DNA of 64,000 bases from an uncultured Deferribacteres bacterium (GCA_913009825.1 CAJVYQ010000019.1:2980-66979), one strand, 5' to 3'; positions 16,095 through 42,222 are shown, counted from the first letter of the stretch. A program made the numbers and translations. The notes: generated by a model from the sequence alone, not told the origin.

Positions 16095-16742
16095 ATGTAT
16101 GAATTTGTTCGTGGACCTCTGGTTTGGCTGGCTTTTATCGTTTTTATTTTGGGCAGCATCTATCGTTTGCTGCAAATACGCAGTCAGCTTAAAAAAGACA
16201 AAGTCGTTTTTTCATATATGAATTTTAAGTACGGCATGCGTTCCATTTTGCACTGGATCACCCCTTTCGGCGCCGTAAATATGAGGAAACGGCCGGCGTT
16301 TACTATCATGTCTTTTCTGTTTCATTTCTGCCTGATCATCACCCCCATCTTTTTATTGGGGCACAATCTGGTGTGGTACGAATCCTGGGGTATTCATTGG
16401 TGGACATTACCGGAGCGGATTACCAATATCATGACCATCATTGTTGTTGCGGCCGGTTTTATTTTTGCTTTGCGACGAATTGCAGACCCAACAGTGCGTC
16501 TGGTAACCGCCTTTTCCGATTTTCTGCTTTTGCTGATTGTTTTGGCGCCGTTCATCACAGGACTGTTTGCCTATTACCAGGCATTTGATTATAAAACCAT
16601 GATCACGCTGCACATCCTGTCCGGTTGCTTGTGGTTGATGATTATTCCCTTCACCCGGATTGTCCACATGATCTTTTTTGGAATTTCCCGCGCTTACATG
16701 GGCTCCGAATTTGGTTATGTGAGACACGCGAAAGATTGGTAA
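16095..16742 (+). CDS. NarI-type membrane cytochrome b subunit (HmcE / TmcC / DsrM-like)
   Basis: 215 aa with about 5 predicted helices, and conserved His residues in helices (FLFHFCL..LLGHNL, LHILSG, RIVHMIFF). Its size and its position next to an HdrD-like gene fit the call. Confidence 0.7.
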   Translation: MYEFVRGPLVWLAFIVFILGSIYRLLQIRSQLKKDKVVFSYMNFKYGMRSILHWITPFGAVNMRKRPAFTIMSFLFHFCLIITPIFLLGHNLVWYESWGIHWWTLPERITNIMTIIVVAAGFIFALRRIADPTVRLVTAFSDFLLLLIVLAPFITGLFAYYQAFDYKTMITLHILSGCLWLMIIPFTRIVHMIFFGISRAYMGSEFGYVRHAKDW

Positions 16743-16769
16743 ATCACGGATTTCAAAAACGGAGGCATC

Positions 16770-18092: not shown

Positions 18093-18151
18093 GAGAAACG
18101 ATACAATCCGGGTAAACCGAAAAATCAAGCAAGAAATTTTGAGGATAAAAT

Positions 18152-19744: not shown

Positions 19745-20793
19745 GCAATTCACGAAGAAATTTTTTCAAGCAAGTTGCCGCAATTGGCGCCGGTGTTGCC
19801 ATAACAAAACCGGCCAAAGCGACAGAAGAATTTCCCGGTTATCCGGACAGTTACGGCATTTTACATGACACCTCGCTCTGTGTCGGTTGTCGTTCCTGCG
19901 AAGCGGCCTGCAATGAAGTTAACCAATTGCCGCCGCCGGAAAAGCCGTTTGATGACAAATCCGTGCTGGACAAAAAACGCCGCACGGATGATAAAGCCTA
20001 CACAGTAGTGAACCGCTACAAAGACCGGGACGGTGAGAAGAAGCCGGTTTATCGTAAAATTCAATGCAACCATTGTTTTGAACCGGCCTGCGCCTCGGCT
20101 TGTTTTGTGGGTGCATTCACCAAAACGCCGTTGGGACCGGTTATTTATGATCCGTCTATCTGCGTCGGCTGCCGCTACTGTATCGTGGCTTGTCCCTTCA
20201 ATGTACCGGCGTTTGAGTACGATGAGCCGCTCCATCCCCGCGTCATGAAATGCACCATGTGTTACCCGCGACTGCTAGAAGGGAAATTGCCCGGTTGCGT
20301 GAAAGCTTGCCCGGTGGGCGCGCTCACGTTTGGTAAAAGGAAAGACCTGCTTTCCATCGCCCGGGAACGCATCCGTAAACATCCCGATCGATACATCGAT
20401 CACATTTATGGCGAACATGAGATGGGCGGCACCAACTGGCTTTATATCACCGGAACGCCGTTTGAAGAGGTGGACCTGCGTATGGATCTGGGAGTTACGC
20501 CGGCGCCGGAATTCACATATAGCGCATTGAGCGCAGTGCCGATGGTAGTGGGTCTGTGGCCGGTGCTGCTGACGGGCGTTTACGCTATCAACAAGCGTAA
20601 TCAAAAAATGGCAAAGAAGGAAGAGGAAGAAGCGGTTTTGGCGGCCATTGATAAAACGAGAAAAGAGGAACAGGCAAAAACGGAAACGGCTCTGGAACGG
20701 GCAAAAAAAGAACAACAAAAAGCGATTGACATCGCTGTGAAAAAAGCGCTTGAAGAAACATCCCGGTCGAAAGACAAGGAGGAAAATGAATGA
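19741..20793 (+). CDS. Tat-exported four-cluster [4Fe-4S] ferredoxin subunit with a C-terminal membrane anchor (HmcB / DsrO-like)
   Basis: The start overlaps the upstream stop (ATGA). The Tat motif is [24 protein letters not shown]. Four Cys clusters are present ([40 protein letters not shown]...CVKACP), followed by one helix ([18 protein letters not shown]) and a K/E-rich tail. Confidence 0.85.
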
Positions 20794-21965
20794 CAACGTT
20801 AACAAACCGTATTGAGCATAAATCGATTTTCACCATCCAAAACATCATCTCCGGGATCATTCTACTGGTGGGATTGGTGCTGACTTTTCTGCGTTTCACT
20901 CGCGGATTGGGAACGGTCAGCAATTTGTCCAACAACCAACCCTGGGGCTTCTGGATCGGCTTTGATCTGCTAACCGGCGTTGCGTTGGCAGCCGGAGGAT
21001 ATGTTACCGGAGCGGCAGTGTACATTTTCGGCAATGAAAAATATCATTCCGCTGTGCGTCCCGCCGTTTTAACCGGATTCCTGGGATATGCCATGGTTGT
21101 TTTTGCGCTGCTGTACGACGTCGGTCGTCCCTGGCGGCTTCCCTATCCGTTTTTTGTCTCCCAGGGAGTTACCTCCGTGATGTTCGAAGTGGGCGCCTGT
21201 GTAGCGCTCTATCTCACGGTGCTTTTCCTGGAAATCTCCCCGGTGGGTTTGGAATGGCTGGGCTTAAAAAAGACCCGCAACCTGGCGGTAAAACTGACCG
21301 TTCTGCTGACCATTTTAGGTGTCATCCTGTCCACGCTGCATCAGTCATCGTTGGGCGCGCTTTTCTTAATTGCTCCTTCCAAACTGCATCCGCTCTGGTA
21401 TTCCAATTATCTGCCGGTCTTTTTTTTCATCTCCAGCATTACCGCCGGATTGTCCATGGTGATCTTTGAAGGCTCACTGTCACAGCGTGCTTACGGCGAA
21501 AAGATGGATGCGAAACATCTAAAGGAAAAAGATGATGTAGCGTTGGGATTCGGTAAAGCGGCTGCCATTGTGCTGTTCGGTTATTTTGCCATCAAAGTGG
21601 TGGGCATTGCGGCGGGAAATCACTGGAATCTGCTATTTACTCCGTACGGCCTCTGGTTTCAGGTGGAGATGATCGGATTTGTCATGCTGCCCTGTTTCCT
21701 CTACTCCATTGGTGTGCGGGATAAAAATCTCAAGTTGATCAAATTCGCAGCAGGACTCACCGTATTCGGCATCGTTTTGAACCGTTTAAACATCTCCCTG
21801 ATTGCTTTTAATTACCGGCTTCCTTTGTCGGAACGGTATTTTCCGCACTGGATGGAAATCGGTATTTCGGTTTTTATTGTTACTATCGGCATTTCGGTTT
21901 ACCGCTTTATTGTCACTAAAATGCCGGTTTTTTACGAACATCCTGAATTTGAAGATTTGCACTAA
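20790..21965 (+). CDS. NrfD/PsrC-type integral membrane quinone-interacting subunit (HmcC / DsrP-like)
   Basis: ATGA overlap with the upstream gene. 391 aa with about 10 hydrophobic helices, positioned after the Tat ferredoxin. Confidence 0.75.
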
Positions 21966-21979
21966 CCGGAGAATAAAAG

Positions 21980-22123
21980 ATGGATATTCATACATTACAG
22001 CAGTTTGTCTTTCATACCAAAGGGGTCATCTACATTCTGATTGTCGGTTATTTGATCGGCTTCCCGCTTTTTTGGCGGTTTTTGCATGCACGGGAGCCAA
22101 AAGACAATGACATTCATACCTGA
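21980..22123 (+). CDS. Small single-helix membrane peptide (47 aa), HmcD-like; absent from the supplied ORF track (below the 60-aa cut-off)
   Basis: ATG at 21980, 14 nt after the upstream stop, preceded by GGAGAATAAAAG. The translation is MDIHTLQQFVFHTKGVIYILIVGYLIGFPLFWRFLHAREPKDNDIHT, with one hydrophobic helix and positive residues after it. Confidence 0.55.
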   Translation: MDIHTLQQFVFHTKGVIYILIVGYLIGFPLFWRFLHAREPKDNDIHT

Positions 22124-22157
22124 TCCCGGCAATATTTATTAACTTGGGTATCGCCCG

Positions 22158-22231
22158 AGGCAGGAGCACAACTCCTGCCTAAGCGAAAAAAAATGTCTTT
22201 GCAATGCCGGGGCAGGAGTTGAACTACTGCC
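22158..22231. repeat. Two GGCAGGAG...CTCCTGCC hairpins (family D REP-like)
   Basis: AGGCAGGAG-CACAA-CTCCTGCCT (22158-22180) and GGCAGGAGTTGAACTACTGCC (22211-22231). The same core occurs at 43648-43676, and a degenerate version at 49158-49184. Confidence 0.55.
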
Positions 22232-22357
22232 TCTACCCTATTATCCACCCCCCAATATCGTTCAATTTCCCCCATTTTATTTTTTTCATTTGCTTCCTTG
22301 CCTATTCATCCGTAAATTTCTTCAAAGCCAATTTTCAACAAAAAAGGAGTCTCTTTT

Positions 22358-23332
22358 ATGAAAACACGCTGGGGTATTTTAGGAACGGGAAATATCGCCA
22401 AACAGTTTGCACAAGGGTTGGCATTTGTCCCGGATGCGGAATTGGTTGCCGTCGGTTCACGCTCACAAAAAACAGCGGATCAGTTTGCCGATCGATTCAA
22501 CATCCCGAACCGTCACAACAGTTACGAAGACCTGGCAAAAGATACACAGGTGGATGTGATTTACATTTCCACTCCGCATACATTCCACAAAGAGAATTCA
22601 TTGTTGTGTTTGCGGCACGGAAAAGCCGTGTTGTGTGAAAAGCCGTTCACTATCAATGCAGCAGAAGCAGAGGAATTGATTGAGTACTCCCGGGGACAAA
22701 AACTTTTCCTCATGGAAGCGATGTGGAATCGTTTTTTACCTTCATTTGACAAACTGCGGCAACTGCTGCGGGAAAAAGTTATCGGCAACATCCTGCACTT
22801 GTCCGCCGATTTTTCTTACCAATTTCCTTTCGATCCGAAACACCGGCTGTTTGCCCCCGAATTGGGCGGCGGCGCATTGCTGGACCTGGGTGTGTACCCC
22901 ATCTCATTTTCATCCATAATTTTCGGGCCGCCCAAAAGTATCAAAAGCTTTGTCTATTTAGGCAAAACGGGAGTTGACGAACAGGCCGCCATCATTTTTG
23001 AATTTGATGGCGGAAAGATGGCTACTCTTTACACCTCGAGCCGTTTCACCTCGCCCGCCGAAATCTGGCTGCTGGGCACGGATGGACGAATCAAAATTCA
23101 CGGCCCTATTTACTGTCCGTCACAAATCACTATCTATCGCAGCGATGATCCGACCGAGTTGAATGTTCCTTTTGCCGAGAACGGCTACAATTACGAAGCC
23201 GCGGAAGTGATGCGGTGTCTGAAAACGGGAAAACTTGAAAGCGAAATCATGCCCCTTGCCGAATCACTTTCCATCATGCAAACCATGGATCGATTGCGCC
23301 GGGATTGGGATTTAAAATATCCCGGTGAGTGA
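22358..23332 (+). CDS. Gfo/Idh/MocA family oxidoreductase (dihydrodiol / sugar dehydrogenase-like)
   Basis: 324 aa with GILGTGNIAKQF Rossmann motif, a CEKPF block, and AAGGAG upstream. Confidence 0.8.
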   Translation: MKTRWGILGTGNIAKQFAQGLAFVPDAELVAVGSRSQKTADQFADRFNIPNRHNSYEDLAKDTQVDVIYISTPHTFHKENSLLCLRHGKAVLCEKPFTINAAEAEELIEYSRGQKLFLMEAMWNRFLPSFDKLRQLLREKVIGNILHLSADFSYQFPFDPKHRLFAPELGGGALLDLGVYPISFSSIIFGPPKSIKSFVYLGKTGVDEQAAIIFEFDGGKMATLYTSSRFTSPAEIWLLGTDGRIKIHGPIYCPSQITIYRSDDPTELNVPFAENGYNYEAAEVMRCLKTGKLESEIMPLAESLSIMQTMDRLRRDWDLKYPGE

Positions 23333-23385
23333 AAAGGAACGTTCATAGGGACGACATATAAAACAAATTTTCAATTTCAGAAAAA

Positions 23386-23510
23386 TAACCGGCGGTTATT
23401 AACACCCTCGGTACTCCCCTCAAGGGGGATTTTTAGATTCCCCTCTTGAGAGGGGCACGGGAAGTGTAAAATAACTTTTGCCACAATTATATCTTGCCCT
23501 GAATAGTTAC
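23386..23510. mobile_element. MITE/REP-like element, family E (reverse orientation relative to 60401-60536)
   Basis: Contains CCCCTCAAGGGGG and CCCCTCTTGAGAGGGG hairpins and ends with CCCTGAATAGTTAC. Its reverse complement aligns with the element at 60.4 kb. The left boundary is approximate. Confidence 0.55.
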
Positions 23511-23627
23511 GAAATTTTCATCTGTTCTTTTTCCCGCTCGTATCCATAAGAATCCAACTCATGACATATTGGAAACTATATTTTCCAAAATCCGTAAATT
23601 TGTAAAAAAAATCAGAAAGGCGTTCTT

Positions 23628-25172
23628 ATGAAAAAAATAAAAATCTCAAATGAGTGGATTCTAATATTATCTTTGGCATTCTTCAAATTGTTTATCCATT
23701 TTTTAACAAGCGCCAACTACGAACTTCATCGTGATGCCTATTTGTATTTATCCCTAAAGGACCACCCGGACTTCGGTTATATGTCGGTGCCGCCTTCCAT
23801 CGCAATTGTTGCCAAAATTTCTGAATTTTTATTCGGAAATTCAACCTTTGCAGTAAGAATATTTCCGGCTTTGACCGGAGCAGCTTCTGTAATTGTGATT
23901 GCTTTAATCGTAAAGAGGCTGGGTGGAAAATTTTGGGCGATATTAATTGCATGTTTTGCTTTTATCATTTCTCCTGCTTTTTTACGCAGCAATTCTTTAT
24001 TTCAGCCTGTTTCTTTTAACCAATTCTATTGGCTTTTAACAGCTTATTTTGTTGTTGTGTTAATTCAAACTCAAAATCCAAAATTTTGGATTCATTTATT
24101 TGTCCTATGGGGACTGGCATTTTTAAATAAATATTCAATTGCTTTTTTAATTGTTGCTTTTTTCCCGGCTCTTCTATTAACCAAAGACCGTAAATTAATT
24201 TTAACCAAACAATTTATTTGGGGAGCAATAATTGGATTTTTTATTATTTTACCTAATTTAATTTGGCAATTTTCTCATAATTGGCCGGTTGTTCATCACA
24301 TGCTGGAACTGCAAAGAACGCAATTAGTCAATGTGAGAATTGGGGATTTTTTTATGTCCCAACTGTTAATGAATATTCCAAACCTTTTGGTTTGGGTTTT
24401 CGGACTTTTGTTTCTGTTATTTTTTAAAGATGGAAAACCATATCGGATCCTTGGCTATACTTTTATATTCGTTATTCTGGTACTCATTTTATTAAGAGGA
24501 AAACCGTACTACACTTTGGGAATCTACACCACGTTATTTGCTGTCGGAGGGTTTGCTATTGAAAAATACTTTACCAATCGTTTGCGTTTGGCAAAACCGC
24601 TCATTTTGGTTGTCATGTTATTTTTTTCCCTGCCGATTATTCCGTATAGTTTACCAATTCTGCCATTTGATAAAATGATCGTTTATGCAGAAAAATCAAA
24701 ACAATACGGCGTAGAAGAGGCTTTACGTTGGGAAGACGGCAGAATTCATCAACTTCCCCAGGATTATGCAGATATGATTGGTTGGAAAGAATTGGGCTTG
24801 ACTGTGGCGAAAGCATATCATAGTTTAAATGAAGAGGAAAAAAGCAGGTGTGCAATTTATGCGGAAAATTATGGAGAAGCGGGCGCAATAAAGTATTACG
24901 GGAAAAAGTACAAGCTCCCCGAACCGATCTGCTTCAACGGTAGTTTCCTGTTCTGGGCGCCGGACAGTTTAAATATCAATTCATTAATTTATGTGAACGA
25001 TGACACTTCCGAAATTTCTCTATATTTTAATTCGGTGAAACAAGTTGGCGGGATTACAAATATTTATGCCAGAGAAAATGGACTACCTGTATTTTTATGC
25101 CGGGGACCAAGAAATAATTTTGAAGAATTTTATCGGAATAAAGTAAGGAAATTGAAGAGTAATTATAGATAA
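23628..25172 (+). CDS. GT39/GT83-type (ArnT/PMT-like) membrane glycosyltransferase
   Basis: 514 aa with about 11 helices. The N-terminal loop YELHRDAYLYLSLKDHPDFGYMSVPP resembles the acidic-loop region of PMT_2/ArnT-like enzymes. The gene is markedly AT-rich. Confidence 0.65.
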   Translation: MKKIKISNEWILILSLAFFKLFIHFLTSANYELHRDAYLYLSLKDHPDFGYMSVPPSIAIVAKISEFLFGNSTFAVRIFPALTGAASVIVIALIVKRLGGKFWAILIACFAFIISPAFLRSNSLFQPVSFNQFYWLLTAYFVVVLIQTQNPKFWIHLFVLWGLAFLNKYSIAFLIVAFFPALLLTKDRKLILTKQFIWGAIIGFFIILPNLIWQFSHNWPVVHHMLELQRTQLVNVRIGDFFMSQLLMNIPNLLVWVFGLLFLLFFKDGKPYRILGYTFIFVILVLILLRGKPYYTLGIYTTLFAVGGFAIEKYFTNRLRLAKPLILVVMLFFSLPIIPYSLPILPFDKMIVYAEKSKQYGVEEALRWEDGRIHQLPQDYADMIGWKELGLTVAKAYHSLNEEEKSRCAIYAENYGEAGAIKYYGKKYKLPEPICFNGSFLFWAPDSLNINSLIYVNDDTSEISLYFNSVKQVGGITNIYARENGLPVFLCRGPRNNFEEFYRNKVRKLKSNYR

Positions 25173-25292
25173 GTTCGGTAATTCCGAATTGGGTTTTTAA
25201 TTGTGAAAACAGTTTGTGCTAAACCACGAGGTTTAAAGTGGAAAGGATCTGCCCCGGGCGGGTCCCGGATGGCGATCTGAAAGGAGCAAAAA

Positions 25293-25634
25293 ATGAAAGG
25301 GAGTATTATTTACTCGGATAGACTTGTAGAAGTGTATGACAAGGGCATTTTATTCCGGAATTATTATTTCCCCTTTGTATCGAAGTTCGTCACATTTCCG
25401 GACATTCTTCGACTGTATAAAAAAGCATCCACTTTGGCGAATGGCAAATGGAGAATATGGGGATCGACCAATTTCATGTACTGGTACCCCCTGGATTGGC
25501 GCCGACCACGGCGAACCGCCATTTACTTTCTGAACCTGGCTTCTCAAAAAGTTCGTATTGGATTTACGGTTGAACACCCGGAACAATTCAGTGAAGTTAT
25601 GAAATCAAAAGGAATTGAAATACACAATTCCTGA
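25293..25634 (+). CDS. Hypothetical protein (113 aa)
   Basis: AAAGGAG lies 7 nt upstream of the ATG. I recognise no motif. Confidence 0.4.
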   Translation: MKGSIIYSDRLVEVYDKGILFRNYYFPFVSKFVTFPDILRLYKKASTLANGKWRIWGSTNFMYWYPLDWRRPRRTAIYFLNLASQKVRIGFTVEHPEQFSEVMKSKGIEIHNS

Positions 25635-25769
25635 CGAATCCCTTTAGCGGGCGCTCCATAAGTCGTGCTACCGGGGTAAGGTAAAAGTTTCTTTTCTAAG
25701 AACTTGAGTGTTACAATTTTTCAATGTTTTATTATTGCTTTGTAAACTGTATTTTGTATATTTTTTAAT

Positions 25770-25890
25770 ATCTTTGAGTTGAATGATCCTCTTGTTTTTG
25801 AACTTGTTGCTATTAGCAGCTCTGTTATTATTTTTCAGCGTAAAACCTGCCGGCGATTCGGCAAATCGTGCTACAATCGCTCAATTCAGG
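25770..25890 (-). mobile_element. MITE family A, copy 1 (reverse orientation; left end degenerate)
   Basis: ...CTCTTGTTTTTGAACTTGTTGC...GGCGATTCGGCAAATCGTGCTACAATCGCTCAATTCAGG aligns with the reverse complement of the copies at 35.2 and 60.55 kb. Confidence 0.7.
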
Positions 25891-25988
25891 GTAGAGAGAA
25901 AATTCTTTCTCAACAGGATGCCTCGGAAATAGGAGGATTGTTTTTATCCGTCGGTTTCGGCAAAAAATTAGATGGACGCCCAAAACAG

Positions 25989-28043
25989 ATGCCCGTTTAT
26001 ACCACAGCTTGTCCGCGTAACTGCTACAGCACCTGCGCCTTTAAAGTGCACGTAGAAAACGGCGTACTGCGCAAAATTGACCCCCATCCTGCCAATAAAG
26101 CTACTCCGGAAGGGCCTTGCCTGAAAGGGTTGAGCTATATCGAGCGGGTGTATTCGCCGGACCGGATTCTTTATCCGCTCAGGAAAAAACAGAATTCGGC
26201 GGATTTTGAGAGAATTTCCTGGGAGAGTGCTCTTAATCTGATTGCAGAAAAGATTACCGGGTTCAAAAATGAATTTGGTCCCCGGAGCATACTCTACTAC
26301 ACCGGCAGCGGCACCAAAGGGTTGCTGAATGCCGTGGGGATGAATTTCTGGCGCCTGTTTGGCGGCTGCACAACAACCTACGGCGATCTGTGCTGGCCCG
26401 CCGGTCTGGAAGCAACCCGGCTTACTTTAGGAGAAAACAAACACAATGCACCCTGGGACATCGCCAACGCCAAACTGATCATCCTGTGGGGGAAGAATGC
26501 CGCCGAAACCAACATTCATCAGATGCTTTACATCAACCGGGCTTTGGACAATGGCGCCAAACTAATTGTCATCGATCCGCGCCGCACCGAAACCTCGGAA
26601 CGTGCCCAGCTATTGGTTCAGCCGCGCCCCGGCAGTGACGGTGCACTGGCTTTGGCAATTGCCCGGCTGCTCATTCAAAACGGGCAAATTAATACGGATT
26701 TTATCAGTCGCCATGTCCTTGGATTTGATGAATTTGCCAAAATGGCTGCCGGATTCACAGCGGAAAAAGCGGCGGAAATAACCGATGTGCCCGTGAAATA
26801 TATTCAGCGACTTGCCGACGAAATCAGGACAATCCGGCCGGTAACCATCAACGCCGGGTTTGGCATGCAGCGCTACACCAACAGCGGCCAGACCATGCGC
26901 GCCATCATCGCTCTGCTGGCCATTACCGGCAACATCGGCAAACCGGGCGCCGGCTGGATTTTTGCCAATTTACAGAGCCACATTTTTGATGCAGTCAAAG
27001 ATCCCATCGCTTTCTATCCGCCTGAAAAACCGGACGGCACGGTACGGGTATCCATCTCCACGGCGAAATTGGGCCGGGATATGCTGGCGGCCAAAGACCC
27101 GCCGCTAAAAATGATCTGGGTGGAACGGGGCAATCCGGTGACGCAAAACCCGGATACCAACACAATTTTGCGGGCATTTCGCGCGCTAAATTTTTGTGTG
27201 GTTGTGGATCAGTTTCTCACCGATACCGCCCGCGAAGCCGATCTGATTCTGCCGGCAAAAACCATGTTTGAACAATCCGATGTGATCAGCGCATACTGGC
27301 ATCCCTACATTCAACTGAAACAAAAAGTGATCGAACCGCCCGGCGAAGTCAGACCGGAATCGCAAATCTACTACCTGCTGGCCAAACAGCTCGGTTTTAC
27401 GGATGAAGAGTTAACCGGTAAAATTCCCGGTCTCTCCGATGCGGACGCTATTTCCTATCTGGAAAAGGAGCTGAAACCGTTTCCGGAATTAACCCTTGAC
27501 ACATTGAAAACAACTCCTATTTTGGCGCCGGGACACCAGGAGATCGCTTTCGCCGATTTTGTTTTCCCCACGCCATCCGGTAAGATCGAGCTTTTTTCCG
27601 GCGAGGCCCAGAAGCGATGGGGTGCCGATCCGCTGCCTGTTTTTTTTGAACCGGCCGAATCGGTCCGCGATGGAAAAAATACGGCACAAGAATATCCGCT
27701 CTATTTCCTGACGTCAAATACTAAAAACAGCATTCATTCTCAATTCAGCAATCTGAAAATGATCCGCCAATTTGCTTCGGAACCTTCTTTGACAATCCAT
27801 CCGCAGGATGCAAAAAAGCGGGGGATTTCCGGCAAAGACCGGGTGCGGATTTTTAACGACCGCGGTGAATTGAAAATAAAGGCAGTATTGGATTACGGCA
27901 TCAAACCGGGGTGCGTGTCACTCTGTAACGGCTGGTGGATTTCCCGCGGCGGAACGGTGAATTTCTGCTCCCCGGGCCGGGAAACGGACATGGGATACGG
28001 CGCCGCATTTCACGACAATTTAGTGGAAGTGGAGAGAATTTAG
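25989..28043 (+). CDS. DMSO-reductase-family molybdopterin oxidoreductase catalytic subunit (DmsA-like) without a Tat signal
   Basis: The FS0 motif CPRNCYSTC-x27-C (C-x3-C-x3-C-x27-C) lies 7 residues after Met25989 and resembles E. coli DmsA CTVNCGSRC. The protein has typical MopB length (684 aa) and a C-terminal barrel region. The start is uncertain: an in-frame TTG at 25938 abuts an AGGAGGA. The ORF-track extension to 25779 runs through a MITE. Confidence 0.75.
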   Translation: MPVYTTACPRNCYSTCAFKVHVENGVLRKIDPHPANKATPEGPCLKGLSYIERVYSPDRILYPLRKKQNSADFERISWESALNLIAEKITGFKNEFGPRSILYYTGSGTKGLLNAVGMNFWRLFGGCTTTYGDLCWPAGLEATRLTLGENKHNAPWDIANAKLIILWGKNAAETNIHQMLYINRALDNGAKLIVIDPRRTETSERAQLLVQPRPGSDGALALAIARLLIQNGQINTDFISRHVLGFDEFAKMAAGFTAEKAAEITDVPVKYIQRLADEIRTIRPVTINAGFGMQRYTNSGQTMRAIIALLAITGNIGKPGAGWIFANLQSHIFDAVKDPIAFYPPEKPDGTVRVSISTAKLGRDMLAAKDPPLKMIWVERGNPVTQNPDTNTILRAFRALNFCVVVDQFLTDTAREADLILPAKTMFEQSDVISAYWHPYIQLKQKVIEPPGEVRPESQIYYLLAKQLGFTDEELTGKIPGLSDADAISYLEKELKPFPELTLDTLKTTPILAPGHQEIAFADFVFPTPSGKIELFSGEAQKRWGADPLPVFFEPAESVRDGKNTAQEYPLYFLTSNTKNSIHSQFSNLKMIRQFASEPSLTIHPQDAKKRGISGKDRVRIFNDRGELKIKAVLDYGIKPGCVSLCNGWWISRGGTVNFCSPGRETDMGYGAAFHDNLVEVERI

Positions 28044-28155
28044 GTTTGCTGAAACCGTCCAGCCCACACCTGTCTGCCGCAGCCGGAAAAAACACGACAT
28101 ACCGGCCTGCCGCAGGCATTTACGAAAACCTCGATGGGTTGGAAAACAACTTTGT

Positions 28156-28272
28156 CCTGATTTGAGCGATTCTTTTGTTTTTAAGTTTGTGACCGTTACT
28201 GAACGGGTTTATACTTTTAATGTGAATTCTGTTGGCGATTCCGCGAATCGCTCTACAATCGCTCAATTCAGG
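28156..28272 (-). mobile_element. MITE family A, copy 2 (reverse orientation)
   Basis: CCTGATTTGAGCGATTC...GGCGATTCCGCGAATCGCTCTACAATCGCTCAATTCAGG, flanked on both sides by TTTGT (possible target duplication). Confidence 0.8.
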
Positions 28273-28325
28273 TTTGTATTGTATCCTGAATAGTTACAGT
28301 TTTCCATATATTTTAGATCAAAAAC

Positions 28326-29672
28326 ATGTTAAACAACCGGGTTAATCAAAAAAGCTTCATCTTCGATACCAACAAATGCACCGGCTGCGGTGCGTGCATA
28401 CTGGCCTGTTCCATTGAGAATGAATTGGAATTTGGCGCCTCCCGGCGCCGGGTATTCACATTCAACGAGGCCCATTATCCGGCTCTGCCCCGCTTTCACC
28501 TTTCGCTGGCGTGTAATCACTGTTTGGACCCGCCCTGTCTCAAATACTGTCCTGCCCGCGCCTACCATAAAGATGAACAAACCGGCGCCGTGATTCTGGA
28601 TCAGGACAAATGTATCGGCTGTAAGTATTGTTCCTGGGCCTGTCCTTACGATGCGCCGCAATTCAATCCATTATCCGGGCTGATGGAAAAATGCACTTTC
28701 TGCGAGCATCGTCTGGCGGAAAATATAGAGCCCGCCTGCGTGGAACTTTGCCCCACCACCGCGCTGCGGTTTGGTGATTACGGCTCAGAAAAAAATTCCA
28801 CAGGAGTACCCGGTTTCACTAAAACGGAAATAAAACCGGCCATCCAATTGATTCCGCTGCAGGAGAACCGCACCGTACCTGAATTTTCGCTGCAACCTGC
28901 AGAAGCAATACAGAAAAAAATCCCGCAGTCTTCGCCTGTATCAAAAATCAGGCTGCAATCCGAGTGGTCACTCATCCTGTTCACGCTTCTCACAGCCATT
29001 TTGGTTGGTTGGATCAGTGCGGCGGTTGTTTACGGCAGCCGGATCGATCCCGTTCAATTTGCCGGTTTTGGTGCCGGGACATTGCTAATCAGTCTGGGAC
29101 ATTTGGGGAAAAAGAGCCGGGCCTATCGTACCATCCTTAATTGGCGCCATTCCTGGCTGAGCCGGGAGATCAGCCTGTTTCCCCTGTTCCTGTTTTTGTC
29201 GGCCGTCTTTATGTTACGAATCGCTGAGGGGCATATTTTAAAATCCTTTGTTTTATTGTCCGGAGTAGTGCTGCTTGTTGCGATGGATAAGGTGTATGAG
29301 ACGGTTTCTTTCTCCCGCTTGCGATTACACAGCGCCGGAACGGTACTCACCGGATTTCTGTTTTTTGCCTATTTTGCCGCTCAACAGAATATTTTCATCT
29401 CCGTTTTGTTTCTTAAATTGGTTTTGTACGCCGGCAGAAAATTCAACGTAGAACTGTACCGGTCAAAAATACACCCGCTTGCATCTGTCACTCGCATCAT
29501 CGCCGGTTTTTTCCTCCCGCCGGTTCTGTTTCATTATTTTTCTCCCGGTTCTGCCGTTTTCATTTTCCTGTTTATCACAACGGGAGAACTGTTAGACCGG
29601 TGTGAATTTTTTCTGGAAATGAACATCCCGACTCCCCAAAACCAGATTGTCACGGATATGTTAAATGATTGA
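28326..29672 (+). CDS. Fusion of a DmsB-like four-cluster ferredoxin and a DmsC-like membrane anchor
   Basis: The N-terminal about 165 aa carry CTGCGACILAC, CNHCLDPPCLKYCP, CIGCKYCSWACP and CTFC...CVELCP. About 8 helices follow, including HLGKKSRAYRTILNWRHSWLSREI, which resembles the DmsC-family HLG..R....SWLSRE block. No Tat signal is present. Confidence 0.7.
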   Translation: MLNNRVNQKSFIFDTNKCTGCGACILACSIENELEFGASRRRVFTFNEAHYPALPRFHLSLACNHCLDPPCLKYCPARAYHKDEQTGAVILDQDKCIGCKYCSWACPYDAPQFNPLSGLMEKCTFCEHRLAENIEPACVELCPTTALRFGDYGSEKNSTGVPGFTKTEIKPAIQLIPLQENRTVPEFSLQPAEAIQKKIPQSSPVSKIRLQSEWSLILFTLLTAILVGWISAAVVYGSRIDPVQFAGFGAGTLLISLGHLGKKSRAYRTILNWRHSWLSREISLFPLFLFLSAVFMLRIAEGHILKSFVLLSGVVLLVAMDKVYETVSFSRLRLHSAGTVLTGFLFFAYFAAQQNIFISVLFLKLVLYAGRKFNVELYRSKIHPLASVTRIIAGFFLPPVLFHYFSPGSAVFIFLFITTGELLDRCEFFLEMNIPTPQNQIVTDMLND

Positions 29673-29678
29673 AATCTT

Positions 29679-29757
29679 GTAACTATTTAGGGAAGTACGG
29701 GGGGTGTAAAACAACTTCCAATATTATTATTACTATACATCCCGGGGTGTTAAATGG
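29679..29757. repeat. Family E-like element fragment (GTAACTATTTAGGG terminus)
   Basis: Starts 7 nt after the stop at 29672. GTACGGGGGGTGTAAAACAACTTCC resembles CACGGGAAGTGTAAAATAACTTTT in the 23.4-kb copy. Confidence 0.4.
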
Positions 29758-29762
29758 TTTTA

Positions 29763-32700
29763 TTAGCTTTCACTGACGATGGCGGAAAATTGCCGGAAAT
29801 TTTGATCGATCTGTTCTAACAATGACGGCACTTTGTCCAGTGTTTTTTCTTTGCCCAATTTTTCTATCTCCGAAGCGATTTCAGCGATCGCAACGGCGCC
29901 CATATTCAAACTGGCGCCTTTTATGGTGTGGGCAATCCGTTCGATAAGCTTGTGATCCCCCTGTTTCACTGCGCTTTTTAATTTTGCCTGCTGATTTTGG
30001 AAATCTTCGATATAGACAGTAATAATTTCTGCCAGTAATTCCGTATCATTATCCAACCGGTTCAGTAAAGATTGGCGATCAAACCGGACGGCCTTTTCTG
30101 TTCCGCCAATATTGTGTGTTTCCTTATTATTCCGGGCATCATAGTTAGAAAAGTGCTTTTCGATCACTTGCAGCAGCGCTTCCGGTTCGATAGGTTTGGC
30201 GATGTAATCATCCATACCAACGTCGAGGCAGGCCTCCCGGTCCCCTTTCATGGCGTGTGCGGTCATCGCCACAATTTTGATATCATGATCGGGCACATCG
30301 GAATCGGAATCACGGATGATTTTCGTAGTTGCAAAGCCATCCAGTACCGGCATCTGAACATCCATCAAAATCAGGTCGTAATGTTTGTTTTTTAAAGCTT
30401 CAAGCGTTTCGGCGCCATCGTTGGTTACATCGGCATGGAAACCTAATTTTTCCAATATATGCAAAGCCACTTTTTGATTGACTAAATTATCTTCGGCAAG
30501 TAAAATCCGGAAATTATGTTTGCGATTCTCTTCCAATGAGTGTCTGGTGACCATGGATTTACCCGGCTGACTCGTCACCAATGTTTGATTTACCACGGTG
30601 GCGAGACATTCATAAAGCTGAGCCTGTTTCACCGGTTTTGTCAGATACGCTTTAAAACCGATTTTTTTTATCCGTTTTGCCTCGCCGCGCTCGCCGATAG
30701 AAGTGAGCATAATTAAAATGAGATGGTGCAATTCAGGGTCGTTTTTTATTTTTCTCCCAAGCGTTTCACCGTCCATTTCCGGCATCATCATGTCCAGGAT
30801 GGCAATATCATAAGGTTCGTCACCGGCCTGGCCGCGGCGCAGTTCTGTTAATGCTTCCCGGCCACAATTTGCTTCTCCGATTTTACAACCCAAAGCTTGC
30901 AACTGCTCAGTTAAAACAAACCGGTTCGTTGCATTATCATCCACAATTAAAATTTTCTGGTTGCGGATTTCATCCAAAGATGCAAATTTCACTTCCTGGC
31001 TGCCGGGTTGTTTTTCAAACACAGCAGTAAACCAGAATGTAGAACCTTCGCCTTCTTTGCTGTCCACGCCGATTTCTCCTCCCATCATTTCGGCGATCTC
31101 TTTGGAAATAGCCAGCCCCAAACCCGTGCCGCCAAATTTCCGTGTGGTGGAAGCATCAACCTGGGTAAAAGGATTAAATATTTTTCTCAATCGATCCGCA
31201 GGAATCCCGATGCCGGTATCAGAAACCTCAAACCGAAGTTTGGCCCGGGCATCTTCTTCCTCAACCAGTTTCACGCGGATCACCACTTCCCCATCTTTGG
31301 TAAATTTGATGGCATTATTCGCCAGATTGATCAAAACCTGTCGCAATCTACCCGGATCACCCTTGAGCAGGGAGGGCACTTCATTGTATATCAAACAGGC
31401 CAGTTCCAATCCTTTACTCTGCGCCCGGTGCGCCAACAGTGAAGCGATATCCTCCACGGCGAACCGCAAGTCGAAATCGATGCATTCCATCTCCAGTTTT
31501 CCGGCTTCAATTTTGGAAAAGTCCAGAATATCATTGATTACTTTCAACAAGGTATCTGCGCTGGAACGTACAATTTCGGCATATTCCTGTTGTTCGGAAT
31601 TCAATTTCGTATCCAGCAGCAAGTCTGTCATGCCGATGACGCCATTCATGGGTGTGCGAATTTCATGGCTCATGTTGGCCAGAAAATCACTTTTGGCTCT
31701 ATTGGCCGTTTGTGCGGTTTTGATTGCCTGGTTCAATTCCCCTTCGGCATATTTCCGTTCGGTAATGTCACGCGCAAAGGCAAAATTATATTCTTTCCCT
31801 TCAAAATTAAGATAATTCAGAACCAATTCTACCGGAAATGTCCGCCCGTCTTTGGCAAGATGCTGCGATTCGATGATCATGGAACCTTGTTTTTTTATAT
31901 TTTCCCAATGTTCCGGCCAGATTTTTTTTGTGAATTTCGCATCAATATCGTGAACCGTCAAGGTTAAGAGTTCATCCCTTGAATACCCCAGATTTTTACA
32001 AGCGGAATCGTTCACATATTGAAAATGCGCATCCGGCCCGATCCAGAAAACGGCATCTGCAGAATGATCCACTGAGAATTGGGTGAGACGTAATTTCTTT
32101 TCGGTTCTCTTCCGTTCCGAAATTTCCTGCTTTAAGTCGTTATTTGTCTTCTTAATCTCCCGGGTTCTTTCCTCTACCCGGTTTTCCAGCTCCTTGTTAG
32201 TACGTTTCACCGACCTTGTTTTAACATGAACTATCAACCCAATGAATAGAATCAGGCTAATTATGCCAAGGGTTCGAAACCATCCGGTTTGCCAGATGGG
32301 GGGGGTAATGGTAATTTTCAAAGAGGCTCCGGCTTCATTCCAGACTCCGTCACTGTTCGACCCCTTCACACGAAAGACATATTCACCCGGAGGAAGACTG
32401 TGAAAAGGCACATAGCGGCGATGACCAAGATTGATCCAATCCCGGTCGAATCCCGCCAATTTATAAGCGTATCGATTCTCTTCCGGGTTGCTGAAATGCA
32501 GCGCGACAATTTCAAAAGAGAAAACATAATCCTTGTAAGACAGGGTAATCTCTTTCGTTTCGGTGATCGATTTTTTTAATGGGGAATTCTCATTTATGGG
32601 TACCGATTGATTGAAAATTTTAAAGTCCGTGATCAAAATGGGCGGCACGTAGGGATTATCAACAATTTTACCCGGCAAAAAAGAGTTGAAACCGTTAATA

Positions 32701-34895
32701 CCGCCGAAATAGATCTTGCCACTGCGGTCTTTATAACCGGCGCCTAAATTAAATTCGTTACTTTGCAAGCCATCCTGCATATTAAAATTCCGGAATTTTT
32801 CTGTTTTGGGGTCAAATCTTGAAAGCCCTTTATTCGTACTTAGCCACAGTAAACCGCTGTCATCTTCAACAATGGCATAAACCAGTTCATTGGGCAAACC
32901 GTCTTTTTCCGTATAGTGAACAAACCGGGCTCCCGCCACCTTTCCGTCATTCGATTTTTCCGTTATCCTTTTATTCAGGCCGCCGTTAGGTGTCCCCACC
33001 CATAATGTGCCGAGATGATCAAAATAGAGAGATAGTATTGCATTGCTGTTGAGGCTGAATGGGTCTTTGGCATCCGACAAATAGCGGGTAAATTTCCCGG
33101 TGGCCGCATCAAAACGGTTCAATCCCTCGATGGTGCCAATCCAGATATTTCCATTCTGATCTTGCGTGATTGAATAAATATAATTGTTGCTCAAACTATG
33201 CTGGTTGTTTTTGTCATGGAAATAATGGGTAAATGCCACCCCATCCTTTTGCTTGCCTTGTAGACTCACACGGGGAATTCTGTTTAAACCGTTTACGGTG
33301 CCAATCCATAAATTGTCATCATAATCCGTGTAGACTACTCTCACCAGGTTGCTGCTTAAACTTTTTGGATCTCCGTCATTATGTTTAAAATTGGTGAACC
33401 TGATCTTGTCATCTCCAACCGGATTGAGTCTGAATTGATTCAGACCGTCCTGCGTTGCCAGCCAGAAGCTGCCGGCACGATCCTGGCAGATCGACATGAT
33501 GCGATCATTGCTTAAACTGCCGGTATCACCGGGGGAATGATTGTAATGCCGGAACCGTTCCACGCCATCTTTATCCATAGACATCCGGTTCAGCCCCTGA
33601 TACGTTCCAATCCATAGAGTGCCGGTACTATCCTGATAGAAAGAACGAACATACCCTCCCTTCAATCCATTTTTATCATCGGGAGTTGGCTTGTATTGCA
33701 CAAAATGTTTCTTCCGCAGATCGAATTTACTGATGCCGCCAATGGTGCCAATCCAGAGTACACCGGCTTCATCTTCATAAATAGATAACACCTCATCATT
33801 CGATAAACTGTGAGCGTCAAAAGGGTTGTATTGATATTGAATAAAACCGGCATTATGATTTTCTTTTGATACGGAACCGGACAAATTTTCACCTGCATGC
33901 TCAACATCAGTCAGCTTATTCAACCCTTTTGATTTTGTGCCGATCCACAGATTGCCATTTGTACTTCCGAACAGAGCTGTCACATAATTGTCAATTAGAC
34001 TGAATGGACGCCCGGCTGCATGATAAAAACGGGAAAACCGGTCACGCTCCCGGTCATAACGATTGAGACCGCCGTTTTCCGTGCCGATCCACAACTCACC
34101 GGAATTATCTTCGCCAATGGCAGAAATAAAATTATTACTTAAACTATTTTGGTCCCGCTTATCGAGGGAATAGTGGATAAAATGATCTCCCCCCTCGTCC
34201 AGCCTGTTCAGCCCGCCGCCGGCTGTGCCAATCCATAATACACCCAAATGATCCAGAAAAAGCACAGTGATCCGATTGTTACTGAGACTGCCGGGATCAT
34301 CGTCAATTTTTCTATAATGAGTGATATAGCATTGGGAATTTTCCGACCAACTCATTTTATTCAGCCCGTTATCTGTACCAATCCAGAGAACACCGTTTTT
34401 ATCCTGACAGATCGCATTGATAAAATTGTTGCAGATACCGGAAGGATCGACCGGATTATATTGAAAACGGGTAAAATTATTTTTCTCCCGGTCGAACAGA
34501 TTCAAACCGCCCCCGTAAGTGCCGATCCAGAGTGATTTATTTTCGTCTTCAAAAATTGTTTTGATATAATTGAAACTCAAACTGGTGGAATCATTTGAAC
34601 TCCATTTATAAACGGTGAATTGGTAGCCGTCATATTTATTTAAACCATCTTGTGTACCAAACCACATGAATCCTTCGTAATCCTGAAGGATACACAAAAC
34701 CGTTGTTTGCGATAAACCTTCATCGATGCCAATGTTCTGAAATTTAATATATTCTTCCTGGGCAAACAGATGGAATGGAAGGATAAACATAAATACAAGC
34801 AGAATTCTTACGATCCGATAAAACGCCAAAATTCGCAATCTGTAAGTCTCCCCCGCTGTTATTCTCTTAACCGGCCGGCATAACGATTTTAACAT
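29763..34895 (-). CDS. Hybrid sensor histidine kinase: periplasmic Reg_prop beta-propellers plus Y_Y_Y domain, TM, PAS, HisKA/HATPase, two receiver domains, Hpt
   Basis: 1710 aa. It has many LWIGT..GLNR repeats, the TM helix WFRTLGIISLILFIGLIV, the H-box FLANMSHEIRTPMNG, the G-box GGTGLGLAISK, receivers ILIVDDNATNRF..DMMMPEMDG and ILLAEDNLVNQK..DVQMPVLDG, and the Hpt motif HTIKGAS. Confidence 0.9.
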   Translation of the reverse strand: MLKSLCRPVKRITAGETYRLRILAFYRIVRILLVFMFILPFHLFAQEEYIKFQNIGIDEGLSQTTVLCILQDYEGFMWFGTQDGLNKYDGYQFTVYKWSSNDSTSLSFNYIKTIFEDENKSLWIGTYGGGLNLFDREKNNFTRFQYNPVDPSGICNNFINAICQDKNGVLWIGTDNGLNKMSWSENSQCYITHYRKIDDDPGSLSNNRITVLFLDHLGVLWIGTAGGGLNRLDEGGDHFIHYSLDKRDQNSLSNNFISAIGEDNSGELWIGTENGGLNRYDRERDRFSRFYHAAGRPFSLIDNYVTALFGSTNGNLWIGTKSKGLNKLTDVEHAGENLSGSVSKENHNAGFIQYQYNPFDAHSLSNDEVLSIYEDEAGVLWIGTIGGISKFDLRKKHFVQYKPTPDDKNGLKGGYVRSFYQDSTGTLWIGTYQGLNRMSMDKDGVERFRHYNHSPGDTGSLSNDRIMSICQDRAGSFWLATQDGLNQFRLNPVGDDKIRFTNFKHNDGDPKSLSSNLVRVVYTDYDDNLWIGTVNGLNRIPRVSLQGKQKDGVAFTHYFHDKNNQHSLSNNYIYSITQDQNGNIWIGTIEGLNRFDAATGKFTRYLSDAKDPFSLNSNAILSLYFDHLGTLWVGTPNGGLNKRITEKSNDGKVAGARFVHYTEKDGLPNELVYAIVEDDSGLLWLSTNKGLSRFDPKTEKFRNFNMQDGLQSNEFNLGAGYKDRSGKIYFGGINGFNSFLPGKIVDNPYVPPILITDFKIFNQSVPINENSPLKKSITETKEITLSYKDYVFSFEIVALHFSNPEENRYAYKLAGFDRDWINLGHRRYVPFHSLPPGEYVFRVKGSNSDGVWNEAGASLKITITPPIWQTGWFRTLGIISLILFIGLIVHVKTRSVKRTNKELENRVEERTREIKKTNNDLKQEISERKRTEKKLRLTQFSVDHSADAVFWIGPDAHFQYVNDSACKNLGYSRDELLTLTVHDIDAKFTKKIWPEHWENIKKQGSMIIESQHLAKDGRTFPVELVLNYLNFEGKEYNFAFARDITERKYAEGELNQAIKTAQTANRAKSDFLANMSHEIRTPMNGVIGMTDLLLDTKLNSEQQEYAEIVRSSADTLLKVINDILDFSKIEAGKLEMECIDFDLRFAVEDIASLLAHRAQSKGLELACLIYNEVPSLLKGDPGRLRQVLINLANNAIKFTKDGEVVIRVKLVEEEDARAKLRFEVSDTGIGIPADRLRKIFNPFTQVDASTTRKFGGTGLGLAISKEIAEMMGGEIGVDSKEGEGSTFWFTAVFEKQPGSQEVKFASLDEIRNQKILIVDDNATNRFVLTEQLQALGCKIGEANCGREALTELRRGQAGDEPYDIAILDMMMPEMDGETLGRKIKNDPELHHLILIMLTSIGERGEAKRIKKIGFKAYLTKPVKQAQLYECLATVVNQTLVTSQPGKSMVTRHSLEENRKHNFRILLAEDNLVNQKVALHILEKLGFHADVTNDGAETLEALKNKHYDLILMDVQMPVLDGFATTKIIRDSDSDVPDHDIKIVAMTAHAMKGDREACLDVGMDDYIAKPIEPEALLQVIEKHFSNYDARNNKETHNIGGTEKAVRFDRQSLLNRLDNDTELLAEIITVYIEDFQNQQAKLKSAVKQGDHKLIERIAHTIKGASLNMGAVAIAEIASEIEKLGKEKTLDKVPSLLEQIDQNFRQFSAIVSES

Positions 34896-35174
34896 GATTT
34901 TTGTAAAACCTCTTTTAGAATTAAGAATCTACATTTTGTAAAAAAGCAACTTCTCATTAAAAATATTAAATCACTAATAATTTATCGGAAGGAGTGCAAA
35001 AAAGATAAACCATTTTATGGTGGTAATTTATTCTTCAACGCAAACGTCACGGCTCATTTGACAAAAAGAGTATTCGCTCAGTTTTTTTAAATTTAAAAAC
35101 AGTACTACTTGTAAACTTTAGTTTTTTGGAACGATAACTTGGTGTTGTGCCAAAAAATCAAAATGTTACAAAAT

Positions 35175-35291
35175 CCTGAATTGAGCGATTGTAGAGCGAT
35201 TCGCCGAATCGCCAACAGGATTTATACCCAAAGATGAAAATTCGTTTGTAAACGCAACAAGTTCAAAAACATAAAAATTGTTCAATTCAGA
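35175..35291 (+). mobile_element. MITE family A, copy 3 (forward)
   Basis: CCTGAATTGAGCGATTGTAGAGCGATTCGCCGAATCGCCAACAGGATTTATAC...AACAAGTTCAAAAAC...TTCAATTCAG. Confidence 0.8.
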
Positions 35292-35297
35292 AAAATA

Positions 35298-38490
<3,193 letters not shown>

Positions 38491-42137: not shown

Positions 42138-42220
42138 CCTAAATTGAGCGATTGTAGGGCGATTCGCTGAATCGCCAACGGGAGTTGCACAAAAAAATGA
42201 AAACCCGTTTGGTAATAGAA
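42138..42220 (+). mobile_element. MITE family A, copy 4 (forward, right third missing)
   Basis: CCTAAATTGAGCGATTGTAGGGCGATTCGCTGAATCGCCAACGGGAGTTGCAC...AAAATGAAAACCCGTTTGGTAAT. There is no right terminal repeat, and the copy abuts the GH29 remnant. Confidence 0.7.
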
Positions 42221-42222
42221 CC

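Follow-up and report, generated by a model that had tools for sequence, protein, structure and literature searches.

A Putative Cytoplasm-Facing, Two-Polypeptide Molybdoenzyme with a Fused Ferredoxin-Anchor Subunit in an Uncultured Deferribacteres Bacterium

Introduction

On which side of the membrane would an enzyme of the dimethyl sulfoxide (DMSO) reductase family work if its catalytic subunit starts at its first iron-sulfur (FeS) cluster motif and its ferredoxin and membrane anchor form one polypeptide? This question was raised by two genes, termed A and BC here, in a 64,000-nt stretch of DNA from an uncultured Deferribacteres bacterium (GCA_913009825.1, CAJVYQ010000019.1:2980-66979); the whole stretch was analysed and is called the window. 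Gene A (25989-28043, + strand) encodes a 684-aa catalytic subunit of the molybdenum/tungsten-bis(pyranopterin guanine dinucleotide) (Mo/W-bisPGD) type with no predicted signal peptide. Gene BC (28326-29672, + strand) encodes a single 448-aa polypeptide, in which a four-cluster ferredoxin is followed by an 8-helix, putatively quinone-binding anchor. Both genes were present on the same strand with intact reading frames.

An initial annotation of the window had read the pair as a DMSO-reductase-family enzyme held on the cytoplasmic face of the membrane. In the present study, we followed up this reading by homology searches, profile scoring, structure prediction and comparison of related loci. We consider it probable that A and BC constitute a two-polypeptide membrane-bound Mo/W-bisPGD oxidoreductase. 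This judgement covers the architecture, the cytoplasmic orientation and the quinone-linked electron path, and the substrate is weighed separately below.

Results

Gene A Encodes a Catalytic Subunit with a Predicted Cysteine Mo Ligand

The initial annotation placed the start of gene A at 25938, in agreement with the public annotation (P0121; TTG 25938, 701 aa), but the orthologues use the ATG at 25989, which gives the N-terminus MPVYTTACPRNCYSTC. This start lies 7 residues ahead of the FS0 [4Fe-4S] motif (26010-26120, + strand), which was found near the N-terminus as originally described, with the spacing C8-x3-C12-x3-C16-x27-C44 (CPRNCYSTC...C). The four cysteines aligned with C63/C67/C71/C104 of E. 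coli DmsA and were 97-100% conserved in 106 orthologues. The Cx3Cx3C spacing and the Asn preceding the second Cys were also as in DmsA (CTVNCGSRC). The Pfam matches Molybdopterin (PF00384, 6e-49), Molydop_binding (PF01568, 6e-20) and Molybdop_Fe4S4 (PF04879, 2e-9) all exceeded their thresholds, so that A has the domains of the superfamily, including the N-terminal Fe4S4 domain with four Cys. Homologues of A numbered in the thousands. The top 120, from Gemmatimonadota, Latescibacterota, Aminicenantes, KSB1 and others, were 66-74% identical to A and mostly 680-690 aa long, and the orthologues were about 70% identical across phyla.

According to the alignment, the protein ligand of Mo at the canonical position is predicted to be Cys135 (motif YGDLCW; codon at 26391-26393, + strand), which was 100% conserved in the 106 orthologues. 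It aligned with Ser205 of DmsA (Ser176 in the old numbering), Ser147 of DorA and the Mo-ligand Cys of FdhF. In the family profile scoring, A reached no curated family threshold. The best curated family was TIGR02166 (dmsA_ynfE) with 346.6 bits against a cut-off of 777.7, followed by Fdh-alpha (297 bits), BisC (242 bits) and PhsA (222 bits); the score against TIGR01580 (narG) was 113 bits, with a cut-off of 1084. By blastp, A matched DmsA over its full length (281 bits, 30% identity), and the matches to the SoeA proteins of loci L057 and L079 were partial only (81-100 bits). The description of A as DmsA-like was thus borne out for the FS0 spacing, which is of the DmsA/NarG type, but not for the ligand, where an invariant Cys takes the place of the Ser of DmsA and YnfE, nor for the profile score. 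The AlphaFold model of A had a predicted template modelling score (pTM) of 0.82. Its best structural matches were DMSO reductases by E-value and acetylene hydratase by template modelling score (TM-score). Structure searches with the models of A and BC confirmed the folds but did not discriminate the substrate. Taken from the alignments, A appears to pair a DmsA/NarG-type FS0 motif with a cysteine Mo ligand.

The Orthologues of A Lack a Tat Leader

A few gene calls for A were truncated or spuriously extended, and the statements on the N-terminus concern the full-length orthologues. These have 5-10 residues ahead of the first FS0 Cys and begin with the consensus M-x-x-(Y/F)-T-T-A-C-P-R-N-C-Y-S-T-C, and the same short start was observed in more than 100 orthologues from many phyla. 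At the DNA level, an in-frame stop was located 8-27 codons ahead of the first FS0 Cys in 24 of the 37 related loci whose sequence showed an upstream stop; therefore, a leader for twin-arginine translocation (Tat) has no room there. For comparison, 62 residues precede the first FS0 Cys of E. coli DmsA. At loci L002 and L003, 21 nt and 65 nt, respectively, lie between A and the end of the preceding gene. No twin-arginine (RR) motif was found among the orthologues of A, and an upstream in-frame RRxFLK leader was likewise absent from them. These results agreed with the initial annotation, in which A had no room for a twin-arginine leader, and the Tat-less reading survived. A thus differs from DmsA and YnfE, which have a Tat leader and a periplasmic location.

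The initial annotation had also remarked that no DmsD/TorD-type chaperone gene is nearby. In line with this remark, the non-overlapping open reading frames (ORFs) of at least 150 aa in the 64-kb window included no member of the TorD/NarJ family. For BC, the absence of a leader has to be read differently. E. coli DmsB also has no Tat signal and is exported together with DmsA; thus, the absence of a leader on BC alone is uninformative.

The B-C Fusion Recurs in Many Independent Genomes

The B domain of BC (residues 1-160; 28326-28805, + strand) contains four [4Fe-4S] cysteine groups (C18/21/24/28, C63/66/71/75, C96/99/102/106 and C123/126/138/142). All 16 cysteines were invariant in 54 homologues, as in a four-cluster ferredoxin. 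Fer4_11 (9e-29) and related domains covered residues 1-160, and Foldseek matched the domain to ArrB, PsrB and FdnH. The identity was 44% to E. coli DmsB and 35-39% to SoeB, and the score against TIGR02951 (DmsB) was 160.1 bits, which did not reach the equivalog cut-off of 214.1. The AlphaFold model of BC had a mean predicted local distance difference test (pLDDT) of 86 and a pTM of 0.87.

The top 120 homologues of BC were fusions of 432-485 aa with 96-100% query coverage, save one 304-aa fragment. Many of the homologues carried precomputed Fer4_11 and DmsC (PF04976) Pfam matches, and some were named 'Fe-S-cluster-containing dehydrogenase component/DMSO reductase anchor subunit' in IMG. The membrane half of BC alone was then searched against 1.84 billion representative proteins, which yielded 545 representative clusters, 335 of them with an E-value of 1e-10 or lower. 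Of the 545 clusters, the 150 best included at least 101 fusions (78 complete and 23 N-truncated). These results confirmed the earlier claim that B and C are fused in one gene. In species-representative genomes, the fusion was carried by Krumholzibacteriota, Aminicenantes, Calditrichia, Phycisphaerales, Planctomycetales, Eisenbacteria, Gemmatimonadota, Acidobacteriota (Holophagae and Thermoanaerobaculales) and many Bacteroidales, and these carriers were all metagenome-assembled genomes (MAGs). A homology search seeded with a Bacteroidaceae orthologue turned up no carrier with a functional name or of clearly cultured origin, the sole non-MAG label being 'unclassified Lentimicrobium'. The database labels for the family were 'molybdopterin-dependent oxidoreductase', '4Fe-4S dicluster domain-containing protein' and 'DmsC/YnfH family ... 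anchor subunit'. In the literature searched, no description of the B-C fusion or of the clade of A was found; this coverage was incomplete, and an earlier description may exist. The words 'fused' and 'fusion' are absent from a review of the NrfD family (PMC8076601).

The BC query also pulled in proteobacterial soeABC loci (L056-L084, e.g., L079 3029-7689 and L057 2772-7728), and the B subunit at L079 is named sulfite dehydrogenase SoeB by both NCBI and IMG. Proteobacterial tblastn matches were considered as extra fusions and rejected, because soeB and soeC are distinct genes there that share a reading frame, and the stop between them had been read through. Such same-frame neighbours mimic a fusion in tblastn and are a trap for automated fusion surveys.

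The Anchor Resembles SoeC and Is Predicted to Be Inverted

The membrane domain of BC (residues 214-431; 28965-29618, + strand) is SoeC/DmsC-like and belongs to the NrfD superfamily, with no haem ligands predicted. In the AlphaFold model, it comprised 8 helices (214-236, 242-257, 277-296, 303-327, 339-350, 354-373, 384-405 and 410-431). The roughly 8-helix, DmsC-like anchor of the initial annotation was therefore right in its helix number, but the anchor proved closer to SoeC than to E. coli DmsC. In hhalign, the family anchor profile matched SoeC of three-gene proteobacterial loci at 98% (E 1.6e-13) and residues 5-143 of E. coli DmsC at 95.5% probability. By blastp, the membrane half of BC gave 1e-10 for SoeC versus 0.6 for E. 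coli DmsC.

The predicted quinone-site loop H259...S276..S279.E281 (HLGKKSRAYRTILNWRHSWLSRE; 29100-29168, + strand) was located on the ferredoxin side of the anchor, which would be the cytoplasmic side. The motif HLGKKSRAY...SWLSRE, which had been singled out initially, occupies residues 259-281 of BC. H259, S276 and E281 were invariant and S279 nearly invariant in the BC homologues. Their spacing was identical to that of the quinone-site residues His65/Ser82/Ser85/Glu87 given for DmsC and SoeC (PMC8076601). BC thus has counterparts of the quinol-site His65 and Glu87 together with the 8 helices of DmsC, and it also has the four residues of the inverted, SoeC-type anchor.

The distribution of Lys and Arg (K+R) over the loops was counted with the AlphaFold helix boundaries. 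Over all loops, the window BC had 13 such residues on the ferredoxin side (family mean 15.0, minimum 11) and 2 on the far side (family mean 0.9, maximum 4), whereas E. coli DmsC had 4 on the B side and 8 on the far side. Within helices 1-4, the counts on the B side and the far side were 9/2 for the window BC, 8-12/0-1 for the other members of the BC family and 5-6/1 for SoeC. For Tat-dependent DmsC, they were 2/4 in E. coli and 0/3 in Sporomusa; the Sporomusa match (L061) is a canonical Tat-dependent DmsABC and served as a control. The quinone-site loop alone contained 5 K/R in the window BC versus 0-2 in Tat-dependent DmsC.

A signal-less four-cluster domain of about 200 residues that stands N-terminal to the first transmembrane helix would only be able to remain in the cytoplasm. 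Since A is leaderless, the cofactor-bearing domain of BC precedes the first transmembrane helix without a signal, and the charge bias of the anchor is inverted, the catalytic side is therefore expected to be cytoplasmic. Collectively, the sequence features and the models supported a complex that faces the cytoplasm, with a charge bias like that of SoeC and opposite to that of Tat-dependent DmsC. The termini and the quinol site, which are periplasmic in DmsC, are accordingly not predicted to be periplasmic in BC. This outcome was in line with the cytoplasmic placement proposed by the initial annotation. Its contrast with the canonical, exported DmsABC was upheld for the inward-facing orientation but not for its novelty, as this orientation is already known from SoeABC (PMC8076601).

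No Gene Other than A and BC Is Conserved in the Neighbourhood

Gene A was found directly upstream of BC in most of the 54 loci compared, over more than eight phyla. In the orthologous loci, the stop of A overlaps the start of BC or lies within about 15 nt of it. When all ORFs at the 54 loci were clustered, only A and BC were conserved, and no third gene (chaperone, regulator or transporter) was found. In the window, both ORFs are full-length and the two genes look functional, judging from their sequences. In GC content, neither A nor BC looked foreign to the genome. The flanking genes were unrelated to A and BC and encode a PMT_2 glycosyltransferase, a 113-aa ORF and, on the opposite strand, a 1,710-aa hybrid two-component sensor.

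The spacer between A and BC in the window (28044-28325, + strand) is unusually long and holds one copy of a repeat of about 115 nt that resembles a miniature inverted-repeat transposable element. Four copies were present in the 64 kb, versus 0 expected by chance (25777-25891 and 28163-28274 on the + strand; ~35175-35290 and ~42138-42255 on the - strand). The ends of the repeat are inverted repeats (CTGAATTGAGCGAT ... ATCGCTCAATTCAG), and a 39-nt core was near-identical. Each copy precedes a gene start and points the same way as the gene, and two copies flank gene A, one of them being the copy in the spacer. The repeat may carry a promoter or another regulatory signal. Its RNA folds were unremarkable (z -0.3 to -2.2). 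The conserved sequence noticed upstream of both A and BC turned out to be this dispersed repeat. An Rfam scan of 20000-36000 gave only a spurious, sub-threshold match to a picornavirus internal ribosome entry site elsewhere.

The only recurrent neighbour was a gene for a Cys/Met pyridoxal phosphate (PLP) enzyme, which was located directly upstream of BC in five Bacteroidales species (L035, L036, L041, L047 and L051, at about 4770-5990) and after BC in one (L026, 4787-5977); the families concerned are Tenuifilaceae and Rikenellaceae. Where it precedes BC, no more than about 70 nt, and in most loci no more than 20 nt, separate its end from the start of BC. The enzyme belongs to the cystathionine gamma-synthase/methionine gamma-lyase superfamily but is divergent and scored below all equivalog cut-offs. 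Another PLP paralogue was found ahead of A in a Holophaga locus (L015, 2565-3839). The PLP neighbour of BC occurs in some Bacteroidales only, and this range is too narrow for it to define the function of the family.

Other Features of the Window

The PMT_2 glycosyltransferase gene (23628-25172, + strand), located just upstream of A, has a GC content of 0.35 (0.33 at third codon positions) versus 0.46 for the window, and it is followed by the 113-aa ORF (25293-25634, + strand), which had no family match. These two may be a small foreign insert beside the molybdoenzyme genes. An Hmc/Tmc-type transmembrane redox cluster was found at 16095-21965 (+ strand), encoding a NarI-like cytochrome b, a TmcB-like protein, a 16-haem HmcA, HmcB and HmcC. 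The TmcB-like protein scored 733 bits against a cut-off of 735, and HmcA, HmcB and HmcC exceeded the equivalog cut-offs. Just upstream of this cluster, a 227-aa ORF (14136-14819, + strand) gave a weak match to a dinitrogenase FeMo-cofactor-binding-type domain (25.2 bits, threshold 26.3). No sulfate-reduction genes were seen in the window. The genome otherwise looked like that of a Bacteroidota member, with a SusC/SusD pair, a type IX secretion system (T9SS) sorting domain and the hybrid two-component sensor. A beta-galactosidase of glycoside hydrolase family 2 (GH2) was present as two adjacent ORFs on the - strand (35298-37583 and 37591-38475), a few bases apart. One half carries the N-terminal sugar-binding domain and the other the triose-phosphate isomerase (TIM) barrel with the C-terminal domains, and the split probably reflects a frameshift, a pseudogene or a sequencing error.

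Discussion

We propose the following scheme for the A/BC enzyme. A would be made and loaded with its cofactor in the cytoplasm and would be retained there, carrying Mo-bisPGD on Cys135 together with FS0. It would dock on the N-terminal four-cluster ferredoxin domain of BC, which a linker of about 50 residues would tether to the haem-less, 8-helix SoeC/DmsC-type anchor. Electrons would pass between Mo (Cys135), FS0, the four [4Fe-4S] clusters and a quinone or quinol in the H259/E281 pocket, which would lie at the cytoplasmic face, adjoining the ferredoxin domain. In this way, a small cytoplasmic substrate would be linked to the (mena)quinone pool. The domain content, the cofactor ligands as placed by alignment, the lack of export signals, the conservation of the fusion and the inverted charge bias come from the analysis itself. 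We infer the physical A-BC complex, its quinone coupling, the direction of the reaction and the substrate.

The initial annotation had seen a different bioenergetic arrangement here, NarGHI-like in orientation. In NarGHI, the catalytic and FeS subunits likewise face the cytoplasm without export, and the FS0 spacing is similar (x3-C-x3-C); the comparison therefore holds for the orientation. It does not extend to the anchor or the ligand. NarI, a di-haem cytochrome b, takes electrons from quinol at the outer face and passes them across the membrane, whereas the anchor of BC is predicted to be haem-less with its quinone site adjoining the ferredoxin domain. NarG is about 1,250 aa long with an Asp ligand, whereas A would have a Cys ligand. 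Since the anchor is haem-less and the quinone and substrate sites would both lie on the cytoplasmic (N) side, no Nar-type redox loop is expected.

Among the DMSO and selenate reductases, E. coli DmsABC and YnfEFGH share with A/BC the full-length match of DmsA to A, the Cx3Cx3C FS0, the 16 cysteines of DmsB and the quinol-site His65/Glu87 of DmsC. They differ in that DmsA carries a Tat leader of 45 residues and binds Mo through Ser, in a three-polypeptide complex that faces the periplasm, whereas A/BC has no leader, a cysteine at position 135, a fused B-C polypeptide and the opposite anchor charge, and it scored below the DmsA, DmsB and DmsC thresholds. The best PDB matches of A were soluble S-/N-oxide reductases of the BisC/DorA/TorA type (1eu1, E 6e-57; Foldseek 8e-43). 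BisC is likewise cytoplasmic. These enzymes differ from A in being soluble monomers with a Ser ligand and no FS0, and the pocket aromatics Tyr114/Trp116 of DorA are Thr and Ser at the aligned positions of A.

Our leading guess for the reaction, which we hold weakly, is that quinol drives the reduction of an S-/N-oxide, or of a related sulfur compound, in the cytoplasm. It was suggested by the S-/N-oxide reductases as the best characterised relatives of A, by a pairing of A with a C_GCAxxG_C_C protein at one locus (described below) and by the PLP enzyme gene beside BC in Bacteroidales.

Several observations weigh against the proposed A/BC enzyme. The hints on direction and substrate are weak, and no experimental data on any member of the family were found in the literature. 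The support for the topology consists of charge counts, AlphaFold helices and the logic of biogenesis. The membrane domain alone scored 17.5 bits (E 0.003) against Pfam DmsC (PF04976), which is below the gathering threshold of 22.3 bits, and the confident alignment of the anchor to DmsC/SoeC is limited to the first four helices. With a repeat inserted in the 282-nt spacer, co-transcription of A and BC in the window is not assured. In a Gemmatimonadota locus (L001; CP070666, 8001-10641), an orthologue of A with 70% identity has, 10 nt past its end, a gene for a 189-aa C_GCAxxG_C_C protein, and no BC fusion was found within 8 kb of A. Conversely, two Rikenellaceae loci (L047 and L051) have no A within 6 kb of BC.

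The alternative that fared best is that A/BC is the functional equivalent of SoeABC, namely, a cytoplasm-facing sulfite or sulfur oxyanion:quinone oxidoreductase in which a shorter A replaces SoeA and the SoeB and SoeC parts are fused. SoeC proteins are the closest non-fused relatives of the anchor, with the same quinone-site residues and the same positive-inside pattern. A Cys Mo ligand is, moreover, usual in the sulfur-compound enzymes of the Mo-bisPGD superfamily, which counts for this alternative. The SoeABC enzymes of Allochromatium vinosum and Aquifex aeolicus also have a leaderless catalytic dimer on the N side. Without a Tat signal, SoeABC faces the N side through an inverted, haem-less 8-helix anchor (PMC8076601), and facing inwards is well matched to a substrate that arises within the cell, which is how Soe has been described (PMC8076601, PMC9324843). 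The catalytic subunits, however, are distant. SoeA has about 990-1007 aa and a CxxCxxxC FS0 (L079), whereas A is a compact protein of 684 aa with Cx3Cx3C, and its partial matches to SoeA fall far short of its full-length match to DmsA. The B domain is as near to DmsB as to SoeB, and no sulfur-oxidation genes were conserved near A and BC at the 54 loci. SoeABC consists of three polypeptides, and L057 and L079 have one ORF for B and another for C. Soe ranges over Proteobacteria, Aquificae and some Clostridia (PMC8076601), unlike the A/BC family, which occurs in phyla of the Fibrobacteres-Chlorobi-Bacteroidetes (FCB) group, Acidobacteriota, Gemmatimonadota and Planctomycetota. SoeABC may thus be taken as the nearest working analogue of A/BC, but we regard functional equivalence as unlikely and rank the reductase reading above it.

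It is still less probable that A and BC are not obligate partners at all, A being a soluble reductase with various electron donors and BC a general quinol-linked module. The loci described above speak for this possibility. At L001, the 'putative redox-active' C_GCAxxG_C_C protein suggests an alternative soluble electron partner of A; at L047 and L051, BC without A adjoins the PLP enzyme gene; and in the window, the repeat separates A from BC. These loci indicated that the A-BC partnership is not obligatory everywhere. On the other side stands the arrangement in most loci, spread over more than eight phyla, where A directly precedes BC and its stop often overlaps the BC start, and the two are the sole conserved genes of the neighbourhood. 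We therefore consider a general independence of A and BC quite unlikely.

It is highly improbable that A/BC is a DmsABC-type reductase of the usual, periplasm-facing kind, with a Tat leader overlooked through a wrong start or located farther upstream. In favour of this reading, the frame of gene A is open from the TTG at 25779, and the 88 open in-frame codons upstream of the first FS0 Cys contain 'CRRFGKS'. This stretch, however, runs through the repeated non-coding element with four copies in the window, has no hydrophobic h-region and is without counterpart in the orthologues; the repeat copy at 25777-25891 upstream of A therefore explains the spurious in-frame extension. The upstream stops, the lack of an RR motif and the anchor charge bias also contradict a missed leader, and the true Tat-dependent DmsABC of Sporomusa looks quite different. 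A frameshift or assembly artefact joining two genes, for which one might cite the roughly 49 of the best 150 membrane-half clusters without FeS motifs (some could be a stand-alone C, but most are evident fragments), has a negligible chance of accounting for BC, since the fusion is uninterrupted, with linker and length conserved, in many independently assembled genomes and metagenomes of many phyla.

Broadly defined, the complex iron-sulfur molybdoenzymes include the A/BC enzyme. What is new is the two-polypeptide architecture and the combination of features in the catalytic subunit, and the orientation has a precedent in SoeABC. We lean towards the view that A/BC represents a large undescribed class of cytoplasm-facing enzymes, with a DmsA/NarG-type FS0, a Cys-ligated Mo and a fused SoeB-SoeC-like module, which would carry out a cytoplasmic reaction in many uncultured phyla, possibly a housekeeping conversion of sulfur compounds or S-oxides. 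To our knowledge, membrane-bound molybdoenzymes of such architecture are almost always drawn facing the periplasm, and SoeABC is the sole cytoplasm-facing exception with an NrfD-type anchor. A/BC would be a second, taxonomically broad inverted group, in which the catalytic subunit is of another type and B and C are covalently joined. The group is large: at least 335 representative clusters matched with E no higher than 1e-10. With no substrate assigned, A leaves a considerable gap in reconstructions from metagenomes, where genes of this kind tend to be called DMSO, thiosulfate or selenocysteine-type dehydrogenases. Automatic annotation as a periplasmic respiratory reductase would give the wrong orientation and possibly the wrong role. 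Since the fusion would fix the topology of the anchor N-terminus, the family would be a natural test case for inverted anchors of the NrfD/DmsC type, including the question of whether such anchors move protons.

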